From the NCBI GenBank assembly GCA_964016885.1, contig OZ024743.1, forward strand, positions 291,772,001-291,836,000: a DNA stretch of 64,000 nucleotides. The letters are read 5' to 3'. This document shows positions 11,848 through 58,930 of this stretch, one piece after another (position 1 is the stretch's first letter; each line of letters begins with the position of its first letter). Below the pieces are notes generated by a model, which made no database searches, was not told the origin of the DNA, and saw nothing but the letters and a program-made list of their open reading frames with translations. Both the position numbers and the translations under genes were made by a program. The stretch is from Eledone cirrhosa. Its lineage: Eukaryota.

Positions 11848-14697
11848 GTAATAATAATAAAATCCAAAGAGGGCTCGATAAGGATAAATATATATCAAAT
11901 ATATAAGAACCGTGGAGCAAATATTTATTAAAATAACAGATTAAAGTTTAAGCAAAAAATCGCTGCTTTCACCCTTAACGCGATCTTCTGAAACTAACAA
12001 AGTCAATCTGTAAACGCAGAAGTGGCTATTTCAAAATAAGTTGCAACTGGAGGAAGACAGGAAGACGATACTTTGGTTCGTGGAAACGTTCCCTATGCAA
12101 ATAAGTAATGGTATAAACATAACATAAACTTAGCTACCACATCAAGACTTAAAATATCCACGTATAGATCGTAATATCCGTTAGGGTTTAATGTGGGGCT
12201 GTAATACAGAAAGGTTTTGTGCAATTTATGTTTACAAGCCAAAATTGCCTCAGATTTTTTGTTTAAGATGAGGTCTGTGGCGTTGAATATTTCCAGGGCC
12301 TCAGCGGCGCAGAGGTCACATGGTCTTTTATTTCCGTTATACGATCTAGCCCTAGCTAGGATCACCCAGTGTAACTTATATTGGGTGTGGTTGTCTTGTA
12401 GACCCCAGATATAAGCTGAAAGTGACGTCATATTCCTTCTTAGAGAGTAACCCAAAGAATGGGTATGCATGTAAAGACGCTGCTTGAATCTATTGGCGGT
12501 TAACCCTATGTAGGCCCTACGGGACGTGGGTGTTTCAACCTTACATTTGTAGACAATGTTACTAGAGAGGCATTTCCCGGATAGGAAGCAATCAAGCCGA
12601 TTCCTACAATTACAGTTAGTACTACCTACAGGGTTGCACGTGTTCCTACGGCTAGGTAGTTTAGCTAAATTAGAAGCTGTGATGTTATGTGCAAGGTTAG
12701 GAGTCGTAAAGTAAGACATTTTAATAGTATTTCTATTAAAAATGTTACTATATTTATGTGTAGGGTAGGGGGGAAATACTTCGTAATAAGGGATAGAGAG
12801 ATCTTAGCTAATGGTGTGGTCACCTCCATATTAGATGGTGAGGTATACCATATAATGCGGCGGGATTTATTTCTTCGAGGTCTATTCTCGTACTCTGTAT
12901 ATGCTACCTTATCAACAAATCCACACCGAGCAAGAGCTTCATTGTAATAAGTGGGATGGTCGTTGAAAATATGCTCGTTAGTAGATAGACGGGAAAGCCT
13001 CAACGAAACGTTTCTTACCAGGTTCTTGGTTATGCTGGCAGGATGGGTGGAATGCTTACTTATGTAATTAAGCGTATAATTCGGCTTTCTATACGGGTAA
13101 TACAAGCCATTCGATAAATTGAGGGTAACGTCGAGGTAATTAACGACCGAGAAGTTGGCCTCAACCTGTATGGAGCGATTGAAGCCTTTAAAGAAGGCTG
13201 TGATTTCTTTTCTGAACCTGTCGCAAGTACGAGGGCCGTACTTAGTCATGGTCAAATGTCCATCATCACGGTACAAACCACCGCCCGCGTTGGGGAATTC
13301 GTCCTTGATAGAGAAAAGAAGGAAAAGGCCGATAAGATCAGTAACCTCCGCAGAATCGCTGGCGCCCATACTCACGTCGAATGGGGGTACTATTGGATTT
13401 TTAATCCAAATAGAGTCGTCGAAATTAATTTACCGACTTACGGGCATTGAGGATGATATCAACTTCGAAATCCTTAACCACTGTGAGTGTTTTAGCGAAA
13501 TTGATAGCTCTAAGAAGTGGTAAAGTGATGGAGGAGTAGTAATTATTGATGTTGAATTGGATAAAACAGCAATGTTCCTTGTTGCATATGCCGTTGAACC
13601 AATCAATCACCGCGACAGAATTGTTCCACTGTGCAAGAGGGGCCAAACTTCTAATTTCAGGTATAATTCTATCAAGAATCCTTTTACTAAGTCTACCTAA
13701 ATCGGTCTTCGTAGGGTTAATAAGCCGAATAGAGGAGTTGTTCGGAAAATTGGATTTGTGATCCTTCAGGGTAAAGTGGGGAGAAATAGGGTCCAGAGGT
13801 TACGTCAGTTCCAGGATGTTTAGATCAGAGGTTCATTTTAAATCCAGCATCGTTGATTTCATTGATGACGCACCGATTAGTTTTACGGTAATCCTTAGTT
13901 ACAGCATTATGTAGTAGTTGATGGTAAGTACTGCGCTCCACTTGATATAGTTTGCCAGTTTTGTCGGAATGGACGTGCACGGCATTAGAATCCTTAATAG
14001 AACGAATTATAGTCCTCAGGTCCTGCTGGAAGGAATTGCTCCTATTCCGAAATGTGATACTCCGTATGAGTTCCAAGACATCATTTTCGAAGGGTAGCAA
14101 AGCTGGGTTACACGGAGGGTTATTATAGGTTTTAAACCCAAATTTATCCTGTTTGTTGTCTGCTTTTCGCAGATTATCGAAATAAAAGACACGACAAAGC
14201 AACCTTTTAATGAACGCGTCTGTTTTCTGTATCAGGAGTTTTAGGTATAATTTCCTGCTTGGTACGGCTCTGTTCTTTGTAGAAATATTCAGATGTTTAT
14301 TCTGCATGATGAATATAAGTCAACAGAGTGCTCAACCGATGGAGCCAAAAAGTACTAATAATAAATTTGAAGACTAAAATCCAAAGAGGGCTCGATAAGG
14401 ATAAATATATATCAAATATATAAGAACCGAGGGCAAATATTTATTAAAATAACAGATTAATGTTTTAGCAAAGAATCGCTGCTTTCACCCTTAACGGGAT
14501 CTTCTGAAACTAACAAAGTCAATCTGTAAACGCAGAAGTGGATATTTAAAAAAAAATTGCAACCGGAGGAAGACAGGAAGACGATACTTTGGTTCGTGGA
14601 AACGTACCCTATGCAAATAAGTAATGGTATAAACATAACATATACTTAGCTACCACATCAAGACGTAAAATATCCACGTATAGATCGTACTATCCGA
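11848..14697 (-). mobile_element. Penelope-like element family A, full-length left copy with direct pLTRs (~11848-12180 and ~14352-14697)
   Basis: Frameshifted RT-EN ORF between two direct repeats, each with an HHR-like motif; abuts (TA)n at 11821-11847. Confidence 0.93.
12093..14307 (-). pseudogene. PLE RT + GIY-YIG endonuclease polyprotein (frameshifted)
   Basis: DVSMGASDSAEVTDLIG, GGLYRDDG, VNYLDVTLNL, PYRKPN, CNCRNRLDC linker, NIVYKC..AYIGLTANRFKQR, CDLCAAEALEI. The CxCx5C linker suggests the Hydra clade of PLEs (inference). Confidence 0.92.
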
Positions 14698-14878
14698 TGA
14701 AAGCAGCGATTCTTTGCTTAAACTTTAATGTGTTATTTTAATAAATATTTGCTCTACGGTTCTTATATATTTGATATATATTCATCCTTATCGAGCCCTC
14801 TTTGGATTGTAGTCTTCAAATTTATTATTATTACTATTTGGCTCCCTCGGATGAGCCCTCTATTGACTTATATTCATC

Positions 14879-17091
14879 ATGCAGAAACAACATCTGAATA
14901 TTTCTACAAAGAACATGCCCGTACCAAACAGGAAAATATACCTAAAACTCTTGAAACAGCAAACAGACGCGTTCATTGAAAGATCGCGTTGGCTTCCCTT
15001 TTATTTCGATAATCCGCGAAAAGCAGACACCAAACAGGATAAATTTAGGTTTAAAACCTATAATAACCCACCGTGTAACCCAGCATTGTTACCCTTCGAA
15101 ATTGATGTCTTGGATCTCATACGGAGTATCAAATTTCGGAATAGGAGGAATTCTTTCGAGTAGGACCTGAAGAATAGAATTCGTTCTATTAAAGATTCTA
15201 ATGCCGTGCACGTCCATTCCGACAAAACTGGCAACATATATCAAGTGGAGCGCAGTACTTACCATCAACTACTAGATAATGCTGTAACAAAGGATTACCG
15301 TAAAACTAATCGGTGCGTCATCAATGAAATCACCGATGCTGGGTTTAAAATCACCTCTGATCTCAACATCCCGGACCGGACCGAACCTCTGGACACTATT
15401 TCTCCCCACTTTACCCTGAAGGACCACAAATCCAATTTTCCGAATAACGGCTCTATTCGGCTTATTAACCCCATGAAGACCGATTTAGGTAGACTTAGTA
15501 AAATGATTCTTGATAGAATTATACCTGAAATTAGAAGGTTGGCCCCTCTTGCTCTGTGGAACAATTCTGTCGCGGTGATTGATTGGTTCAAAGGCATATG
15601 CAACAAGGAACATTGCCGTGTTATCCAATTCGACATCAATAATTACTACTCCTCCATCACTTTACCACTTCTCCTTAGAGCTATCAATTTCGCTAAAACA
15701 CTCACAGTGGTTAAATATTTCGAAGGTGATGTCATCCTCAATGCCCGTAAGTCGATGATTAATTTCGACGACTCTATTTGGATTAAAAAATCCAATAGTA
15801 CCCAATTCGACGTTAGTATGGGCGCCAGCGATTCTGCGGAGGTTACTGATCTTATCGGCCTTTTCCTTCTTTTCTCTATCAAGAACGAAATCCCCAACGC
15901 GGGCGGTGGTTTGTACCTTGATGTTGGACTTTTGACCAAGACTAAGTACGGCCCTCGTACTTGCGACAGGTTCAGAAAAGAACTCACAGCCTTCTTTAAA
16001 GGCTTCAACCTCTCTATACAGGTTGAGGCCAACTTCTCGGTCGTTATTTACCTCGACGTTACACTCAATTTATCGAATGGCTTGTATTACCCGTATAGAA
16101 AGCCGAATTATACGCTTAATTACATAAGTAAGCATTCCAACCATCCTGCCAGCATAACCAAGAACCTGGTAAGAAATGTTTCGTTGAGGCTTTCCCGTCT
16201 ATCTACTAACGAGCATATTTTCAACGACCATTCCACTTATTACAATGAAGCTCTTGCTCGGAGTGGATTTGTCGATAAGTTAGTATATACAGAGTACGAG
16301 AATAGACCTAGAAGAAATAGATCCCGTCGCATTATATGGTATAACCCACCATATAATATGGAGGTGGCACACCATTAGCTAAGTTCTTTCTATCCCTTAT
16401 TTCGAAGCATTTTGCCCCTACCCTACACATAAATATAGTAATATTTTAATAGAAATACTATTAAAATTTCTTACTCTACGACTCCTAACCTTGCACATAA
16501 CATCACAGCTTCTAATTTAGCTAAACTACCAGGCCGTAGGAACACGTGCAACCCTGTAGTTAGTACTAACTGTAATTGTAGGAATCGGCTTGATTGCCCC
16601 CTATCCGGGAAATGCTTCTCTAGTAACACTGTCTACAAATGTAAGGTTGAAACACCCACGTCCCGTAGGGCCTACATATGGTTAACCGCCAATAGATTCA
16701 AGCAGCGTCTTTACATGCATACCCATTCTTTTCGTACCTTCTAAGAAGGAATATGACGTCACTTTCAGCTTATATCTGGAGTCTAAAAGACAACCACACC
16801 CAATATAAGTTACACTGGGAGATCCTAGCTAGGGCTAGATCGTATAATGGAAACAAAAGACCATGTGACCTCTGCGCCGCTGAGGCCCTGGAAATACTCT
16901 ACGCCACAGACCACATCTTAAACAAAAAGTCTGAGGCGATTTCGGCTTGTAAACATAAATTGCACAAAACTTTCCTGTATTACAGCCCCACATTATACAC
17001 TAACGGACAGTACGATCTATACGTGGATATTTTACGTCTTGATGTGGTAGGTAAGTATATGTTATGTTTATACCATTACTTATTTGCATAG
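14879..17091 (+). pseudogene. PLE RT + GIY-YIG polyprotein (stop at 15161, frameshifts near 16375 and 16740)
   Basis: ORFs 14879-15163, 15206-16378 and 16753-17091 are collinear with the left copy; catalytic YRDD is mutated to YLDV. Confidence 0.92.
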
Positions 17092-58234: not shown

Positions 58235-58384
58235 AACCATATTAAGTAGAGTGAATTTTTTGAAATTTATTTTGAAACTTTTTCTTAATTGCTAAATCTT
58301 GATTATAACGAAGGAAATGTGGTAAGGAACCAGGTGGACCATAACGCACCAAAGTACTCAATACTTAGGGTAGTATAGTGGGTA

Positions 58385-58930
58385 ATAGGAACAAGTAAGA
58401 CCCCGACGGCTGAGCTCAAATCGTTTCGACGGCTAATTCTGGACTGAATGAAAATGTATTCTGGTATTTAAATAGCCGAGCTTATCAAGGGGTAATTCCA
58501 TATATGGTCAAAGAGATAATCACCAGGTTGGTCACCTCACAAGTTAGTAGTAAATCTGTGATGGCAAATTTAAGCGTTGGTAGTGCCGGCTACAGCTGTT
58601 TCGACTTCCTCTCCCTTCCCCTCCCCAGTATCCTCTTTGACCTCACACCCAGCTGTAGCCGGCACTACCAACGCTTGAATGGGTCTACTCCACCCTTCTC
58701 CCTTTTTCTCCTACAGGCAGGTTCAGCTGCCCCTTCCCCCACCAATTTGCCATCACAGATTTACTACTAACTTGTGAGGTGACCAATCCTGGTGATTATT
58801 TCTTTGACCATATATGGAATTACCCCTTGATATGCTCGGCTATTTAAATACCAGAATACATTTTCATTCAATCCAGAATTAGCCGTCGAAACGGCTTGAG
58901 CTCAGCCGTCGGGGTCTTACTTGTTCCTAT
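58385..58930. mobile_element. Inverted pLTR-like pair (58385-58597 and 58650-58930) with variant HHRs at 58400-58493 (-) and 58822-58915 (+)
   Basis: Reverse-complement arms (right arm has ~65 extra nt); ACCCC-TTGATA(A/T)-..CGGCTA..TAGCCG..-GAAACGGCT..AGCCG-TC-GGGGT. Confidence 0.78.

Follow-up and report, generated by a model that had tools for sequence, protein, structure and literature searches.

How do two copies of one retroelement come to lie head-to-head, their 3' ends pointing outward, at so many places in a single piece of genome? The question is raised by 64,000 nucleotides (nt) of Eledone cirrhosa DNA (GCA_964016885.1, contig OZ024743.1, positions 291,772,001 to 291,836,000; the window), for which a first-pass annotation had listed ten such 'tail-out' insertions of Penelope-like elements (PLEs) into TA microsatellites. 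We lean towards the view that these head-to-head PLE insertions arose when the two ends of a single double-strand cut acted as primers in a set order. This view is supported by unequal ends that recur at the same sites, by the match of the shorter end to TA, by arms that are each other's nearest relatives and by the two arms of one insertion (number 4 below).

The inverted insertions and the elements that form them

The animal DNA of the window is AT-rich, and its (TA)n tracts number 56 after merging. Inverted arms were sought by self-BLAST of the window with TA masked, which recovered nine of the ten annotated intervals. The tenth, at 48.8-53.5 kb, has a 37-nt inverted arm at 53471-53507 (score 59, against 26 for the best of 20 shuffles; in a second test 0 of 100 shuffles scored as high), so that tail-out arms are confirmed in all ten. 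Three further inverted structures bring the total to 13. Over insertions 1-10 the arms span 37 to about 2,560 nt. The tail-out orientation was read from the strand of the open reading frame (ORF) in insertions 1, 2, 4, 7 and 8, from a family link in insertion 6, and from hammerhead or hammerhead-like cores in insertions 3, 5 and 9; in insertion 10 it is a degenerate core seen by eye only. In the following list arm mismatch includes indels, EN is endonuclease, UTR untranslated region and pLTR pseudo-long terminal repeat.

Insertion 1, 11848-17258: Hydra-type PLE with two near-full-length arms head-to-head and (TA)n on both sides; left arm on the minus strand with its 5' pLTR at 14375-14696, right arm on the plus strand from 14698; left 3' end longer by 77 nt; 210-nt spacer that is part of the left arm; mismatch 6.3%
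Insertion 2, 23974-25721: Hydra-type EN and 3' UTR on the plus strand (24222-25721), preceded at the left by a 250-nt inverted arm; 3' end at the right exceeding the other by about 160 nt; no more than (TA)4 in the left flank; mismatch 8.1%
Insertion 3, 25742-27738: 400-nt arms with a hammerhead-like core; left end longer by 88 nt; 1.07-kb spacer (26243-27314); mismatch 1.2%
Insertion 4, 27764-29890: palindrome of Neptune-type EN and 3' UTR with 1.03-kb arms; left 3' end longer by 60 nt; 11-nt spacer, its reading frame continuous with the right arm; mismatch 1.1%
Insertion 5, 38721-38926: 100-nt arms that each hold a type I hammerhead and meet without a spacer at a 6-nt palindromic centre; ends differing by just 4-8 nt; (TA)n on the right only; mismatch 4.1%
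Insertion 6, 39410-39771: inverted copy from the insertion 7 family, consisting of pLTR only; left end longer by 89 nt; short duplicated block at the inner junction; mismatch 9.2%
Insertion 7, 45041-48542: Hydra-type EN and 3' UTR with 1.59-kb arms; right end longer by 89 nt; 230-nt spacer in frame with the right arm; mismatch 1.3%
Insertion 8, body 48780-53467, minus strand: full-length Hydra-type PLE with direct, partial-tandem pLTRs (48780-50222 and 52096-53470)
Insertion 8, inverted arm 53471-53507, plus strand: 37 nt, with its end on an ATATAT word inside the element, so that it lacks the last 166-182 nt of the long end; mismatch 8.1%
Insertion 9, 54592-56116: 169-nt arms with a hammerhead-like core; left end longer by 114 nt; 1.07-kb spacer (54875-55947); mismatch 7.7%
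Insertion 10, 58388-58927: arms at 58388-58598 and about 58650-58927, the left one lacking about 66 internal nt; hammerhead-like core degenerate and seen by eye; (TA)n confined to the right; mismatch 2.7%
Further structure, 20465-20989: inverted structure with 83-92-nt arms and no recognised PLE feature; (TA)n on the right only
Further insertion, 22274-23743: 70-nt inverted arm at the head of a retrozyme-like tandem of three hammerhead-bearing units; left side without TA
Further copy, 33990-34341: old inverted member of the insertion 4 family, with 19-28% divergence between its arms

Alternating TA runs of at least 8 nt lie on both sides of 8 of the 10 annotated insertions and of 9 of all 13. 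The annotated insertion into (TA)n thus holds in full for those eight; insertions 5 and 10, like the structures at 20.5 and 22.3 kb, have a run on one side only (4/13). Several insertions are chained end to end with common TA tracts (23974-29890, 45041-53507 and 56832-58927), and it seems that every insertion provides new targets for later ones. The three tandem units at 22341-23743 measure 470-540 bp, and all of them contain a type I hammerhead as well as a TA-rich tract in their interior; this array seems to have captured its own flank. The 3' UTR of insertion 7 contains a 210-bp internal duplication (45242-45661, mirrored at 47838-48255), which is present in both arms and therefore older than the insertion.

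That the insertions are PLEs is borne out by Hydra motifs in five of them, by a Neptune-type family and by hammerhead-like ends in most of the others. A PLE profile built from 30 long homologues of the insertion 1 protein covers positions 1-695 of 700, reverse transcriptase (RT) and EN, in insertions 1 and 8 and in an uninverted copy at 6.6-10 kb, and is restricted to the EN in insertions 2 and 7. The layout is that of an EN+ PLE, with a PLE RT followed by a GIY-YIG EN in one ORF, and the Pfam GIY-YIG match is weak (E 0.0055, in one of eight PLE pieces). Partial-tandem pLTRs are seen as direct repeats (11858/14375, 48780/52096 and 6572/9910) and as inverted arms. Insertion 8 carries RWK and DRT, and insertion 1 and the 6.6-10 kb copy carry DKT, which is found in 25 of the 30 long homologues, DKG being found in none. 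Translations of insertions 1, 7 and 8 share a CxCX5C linker, lack CCHH and have CxxC and CxH flanking E and N; the linker is also present in insertion 2. One named match is a Hydra vulgaris protein (41%). Judged by these diagnostic motifs, insertions 1, 2, 6, 7 and 8 and the 6.6-10 kb copy are assigned to the Hydra clade, insertion 6 having been placed in the family of insertion 7 by comparison of copies.

The family of insertion 4 differs in its motifs: a CX4CxxC linker, kept in 37 of 37 long homologues, CCHH (two Cys in the GIY-YIG core and two His), and a C-terminal EN followed by a stop and UTR. From these motifs its design is predicted to be Neptune-type, its RT-less copies leaving Neptune and Nematis unseparated by RT. 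A word-index protein search for longer relatives of this EN returned none, an HMMER search returned 2,605, and a metagenome scan gave 145 pattern matches, 0 of them confirmed.

Insertions 3, 5, 9 and 10 are without coding sequence, and neither they nor the 20.5-kb structure gave a protein match. The spacers of insertions 3, 9 and 10 and of the 20.5-kb structure likewise matched no protein, and none of them had a source in the rest of the window; the 1.07-kb spacers of insertions 3 and 9 may be long UTRs or captured host DNA. The full type I hammerhead descriptor matched each arm of insertion 5, the 22.3-kb units and position 58153, with four matches scoring at least 14 against one in six shuffles. 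A core with stem II is present in insertions 3, 4, 6 and 7, and a hammerhead-like core in insertion 9. Rfam returned no hammerhead match on the window, and the folding z-scores of five hammerhead candidates were not significant. Sub-threshold Rfam microRNA matches, which lie on hairpins and TA tracts, were rejected.

Unequal ends, related arms and inner joins

One arm is longer than the other at its 3' end in 10 of the 13 inverted insertions, by 60-250 nt (77, about 160, 88, 60, 89, 89, 166-182, 114, about 250 and 85 nt; 4-8 nt in insertion 5), and the same long and short sites recur in independent copies. Both ends of the break probably do prime, as the annotation had it; the further claim that they prime equally does not survive this regular inequality. 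Two uninverted copies, ending at 57697 and 60749, stop at the short site, which can therefore serve as a start alone.

The short site is a TA-like word. Over insertions 1-10 it shows 32 matching bases against 10.5 expected (p=0.00023, by a Monte Carlo null that permits greedy matching both ways), in keeping with the earlier suggestion, which gives base pairing with (TA)n a role. Long ends with known continuation (n=2) match by 1-3 nt. As a post hoc observation, 7 of 9 tails inspected contain the word T(T/A)GAG beyond the short start site, 21-34 nt away in five and about 70 nt away in two. These tails belong to different families (insertions 2, 3, 6, 7, 8 and 9, and the 88-nt stretch left of insertion 10), and the word is possibly a protein-binding element. 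Its presence left of insertion 10 hints that this insertion, too, has a tail.

Both arms duplicate the same 3' segment in 13 of 13 cases. The twin priming that the annotation had invoked is a poor fit, as that of L1 gives two different fragments with an internal deletion (PMC2837659). The arms of one insertion are closer to each other than to the nearest other copy: divergence is 1.0 against 9.2% for insertion 7, 1.4 against 8.9% for insertion 4, 0 against 6.5% for insertion 3, 5 against 21% for insertion 5 and 9.2 against 19.6% for insertion 6. The four pLTR copies of insertion 1 are star-like, at 5.4-8.5%. Very short arms of 37, 70, 169 and 250 nt stand next to kilobase bodies.

The spacer of insertion 4 is exceptional in continuing the short-ended arm, where it reads LYRSK in frame; this motif is found at the corresponding place in 13 of 22 homologues inspected. 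Neither arm of insertion 4 can be a plain copy of the other, because each holds sequence absent from the other. The inner joins show microhomology of 0-6 nt, with one 1-nt and one 15-nt insertion. There is none at the joins of insertions 1 and 8, and inverted microhomology of 3-6 nt lies at the centres of insertions 4 and 5 and of the 22.3-kb insertion.

Inverted and uninverted copies in the window

Tail-out inversion had been called the rule, which overstates it: of 25 recognisable PLE-type copies, 13 are inverted and 12 uninverted (Wilson interval for the inverted share 33-70%), and in a strict tier with a protein or protein-family link the count is 7 of 12. Inverted units dominate the view because they hold 24,493 of 31,304 bases (78%). 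Their true share is probably lower, since short uninverted pieces between TA tracts are harder to recognise; a share of one half is likelier to be too high than too low. The uninverted copies are as follows.

6556-10071, minus strand: full-length Hydra-type PLE with direct pLTR
11490-11818, plus strand: retrozyme-like unit with a hammerhead core and a 19-nt terminal direct repeat
22032-22210, minus strand: family of insertion 3, with the long end
39147-39360, plus strand: hammerhead-like piece; second copy at 61762-61976
56162-56270, minus strand: relative of insertion 5
56832-57518, minus strand: tandem of pLTRs belonging to the insertion 1 family, flanked on each side by (TA)n; 4 nt of microhomology where the 5' end joins the target
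57535-57697, plus strand: family of insertion 7, stopping at the short site; (TA)n on both sides
57715-57975, minus strand: piece between TA tracts with a hammerhead-like core by eye; second such piece at 48571-48635
59970-60749, plus strand: relative of insertion 4, stopping at the short site
62013-62305, minus strand: family of insertion 4, stopping at the long site

Uninverted status was judged by a mini-arm test that recovers the 37-nt arm of insertion 8. Applied to 14 apparently uninverted copies, it revealed no hidden mini-arm: the best scores were 11-20, against 59 for the positive control, and although at most 1 of 100 shuffles scored as high in 3 of the 14 rows, the matches there are only 8-10 nt. 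Two of the 12 uninverted copies rest on hammerhead-like cores read by eye. The stretches 61446-61557 and 62556-62666 were excluded for weak PLE evidence. Facing the left end of insertion 10 is a separate piece on the plus strand, at 58019-58300, whose type I hammerhead is well formed (core 58153); adding it would give 13 of 26.

The surroundings hold other repeats. Helitron-like Rep/Pif1 helicase fragments lie on the minus strand at 1-4320 (Pfam Pif1 matches), with a 182-bp near-perfect palindrome inside them at 3419-3600. A repeat of 130-190 bp, like a short interspersed element (SINE), occurs in seven copies in both orientations (17716, 18433, 19835, 23773, 34484, 37365 and 38166) and presumably resembles one in octopus genomes; insertion 2 adjoins the 3' end of one copy. 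An inverted signal at 36.9-38.3 kb was rejected as an insertion, being two SINE-like copies in opposite orientation. A further element has a diverged 110-bp direct repeat at 35141-35410.

Proposed priming from both ends and its alternatives

In the scheme that we favour, all reaction steps of which we infer, the GIY-YIG nuclease would cut both strands of (TA)n, and one target end would serve as primer for reverse transcription from the distal start site. The opposite end would pair by 2-6 nt with an internal AU-rich site and prime a second, usually shorter complementary DNA (cDNA), its template being either the same RNA (by displacement) or a sibling RNA, and the two cDNA ends would be joined via 0-6 nt of microhomology or a small insertion. 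Were the second end to pair with the cDNA instead, an ordinary uninverted copy would result. The scheme fits the in vitro behaviour of PAc, a Poseidon PLE of Anolis, which cleaves and extends both strands, has two adjacent internal starts and is predicted to be dimeric (PMC11167929). A narrower version, which we put forward only tentatively as rather unlikely, takes the inverted unit as the record of an ordered two-enzyme reaction on one RNA: the distal start would be used first, and the second (TA)n end would invade at a fixed AU-rich site behind it and copy by displacement. Target symmetry would here lift inversion to about half and fill genomes with kilobase palindromes capable of forming double-stranded RNA (dsRNA).

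Several observations weigh against ordered two-ended priming. Among the 8 spacers that can be assigned, 7 extend the long-ended arm (p=0.035; 7 of 9 and p=0.09 if insertion 10 is taken against), and the inner truncation points of the kilobase arms agree within 0-230 nt. The spacer side and the similar truncation points are both just as a fold-back of the cDNA (below) would have them, and here they call for an added assumption, such as a shared template or a trailing second enzyme. The short end of insertion 5 has no TA match and its ends are nearly equal, the match of insertion 3 is only 2 nt, and in the old 34-kb copy the arms are no nearer to each other than to other copies. PAc primes in vitro without need of target homology (PMC11167929). 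The evidence base is one window with 13 events from several families.

The spacer side and the kinship of the arms would be explained more simply by fold-back, in which one end primes distally, the truncated cDNA, folded on itself, is used as template for a new strand, and the remaining (TA)n end captures this strand at the first AU-rich word that it exposes. Arms made in this way would be identical at birth and nearly equal in length, the inverted microhomology at three centres suits it, and self-priming has been proposed for head-to-head PLEs (PMC3846280). We regard fold-back as a strong rival, though as less probable than two-ended priming. It does not predict the spacer of insertion 4 on the short arm, though a later flip by recombination between the arms could explain this and would count against two-ended priming. 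The joins of insertions 1 and 8 lack microhomology, the zero-loop centre of insertion 5 suits annealing of two ends, insertions 2, 8 and 9 would require loops of 1-4.5 kb, and solo copies stop at the short site.

The idea that self-complementarity of (TA)n leads to equal priming by both ends, raising inversion above that of PLEs in other targets, appears improbable to us in this strong form. About half of the copies and most of the PLE bases are inverted, TA flanks most of these on both sides, and short ends pair with TA-like words. The ends are, however, systematically unequal, and at least four uninverted copies also have TA on both sides; two uninverted copies are joined to the target at the 5' end via a 4-nt ATAT microhomology. 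Self-complementarity permits the second end to pair with RNA or equally with cDNA, and so permits both outcomes; it may help the second end to pair. Symmetry is not needed for inversion, given TA on one side only in 4 of 13 cases, the uninverted ATAT joins, and Adineta vaga, where the 'typical Penelope structure' is one of pLTRs lying head-to-head, with target duplications of 8-10 bp (PMC3846280), an instance of this layout in targets other than microsatellites. As a cause of the high inversion frequency symmetry is thus weakened, in a window that holds TA targets only.

Could the short-armed cases (insertions 3, 5, 9 and 10 and the 20.5-kb structure) be non-autonomous DNA transposons that carry terminal inverted repeats and went into TA sites? 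Their lack of protein matches, their TA flanks and the spacers of insertions 3 and 9 without assigned source would allow it. We think it very unlikely, with the 20.5-kb structure as a possible exception, as the ends of insertions 3 and 9 are offset rather than coterminal, one-armed relatives of insertions 3 and 5 exist, and full or hammerhead-like cores are present in insertions 3, 5 and 9. Assembly or chimeric-read artefacts are hardly credible. Insertions 4 and 5 are near-perfect palindromes whose junctions are supported by the assembly only; the annotation had already held arm mismatches against this explanation, and rightly, as arms diverged by 1.1-9.2% with indels also have different, family-specific end sites and different flanking sequence. 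A word search of sequencing runs with a 2.1-kb stretch over insertions 3-4 gave, among 20 matches listed, shares of the words of 0.68-0.72 (three, from one sample) and 0.46 (one, from a second sample), which have no bearing on the junctions; no RNA data set was among the matches listed.

How PLEs make tandem and inverted ends has been described as unresolved (PMC8557442). Layout, one-sided tail and TA preference are already published. The canonical EN+ PLE unit (PMC8557442, PMC3846280) shares partial-tandem pLTRs, a head-to-head 5' inverted copy, one-end extension, 5' truncation, hammerhead motifs and palindromes at some inverted junctions. The present units differ in a one-sided extension of 60-250 nt rather than 30-40 bp, in several inverted arms of 1-2.6 kb that include the ORF, and in that any target duplication is masked by (TA)n. 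The Hydra clade, nearly all of whose insertions lie in (TA)n, has the same RWK, DKT and CxCX5C motifs, no CCHH, CxxC/CxH round E and N, and a C-terminal EN, and is 'generally <3 kb' (PMC8557442), whereas two of the three full units here are 3.3 kb. With PAc the likenesses are cutting and extension of both strands and two internal starts that would explain the tail; PAc, however, starts in an AC-rich stem-loop without target homology (PMC11167929), whereas the inner site of the present units has 2-6 nt in common with (TA)n, and their start sites are further apart. L1 twin priming and the proposed 'dual priming' (PMC2837659) share second-end priming, internal microhomology and tail-out geometry, but in the present insertions the arms overlap over their whole length, a pattern nearer to that of dual priming, or of displacement on a single RNA. 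In the literature covered, partly abstracts and without the supplements, which may hold Hydra-family inversion counts, there was no test of target symmetry and no count of short-end microhomology; Evgen'ev and Arkhipova 2005 and Arkhipova 2006, outside this coverage, may treat it.

The annotation had also proposed that the arms seed dsRNA, a potential substrate of ADAR or of small-RNA pathways. Insertion 5 folds as one long hairpin (z -24.7), and dsRNA from inverted arms would be trivially possible, going by sequence. The arm differences of insertion 1, in sense orientation, gave no sign of a template edited from A to I (A/G 25 against C/T 42). Small RNAs from inverted PLE halves have been reported in A. 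vaga (PMC3846280).

Palindromes of kilobase length and 99% identity matter for assembly and possibly for dsRNA, their transcription being hypothetical here. Three signatures separate the models and can be counted genome-wide: the pairing of long and short ends, the microhomology of the short end to the target, and the arm that bears the spacer. If the two-enzyme reading is true, the PLE integration cycle would be readable and testable from junction statistics alone.

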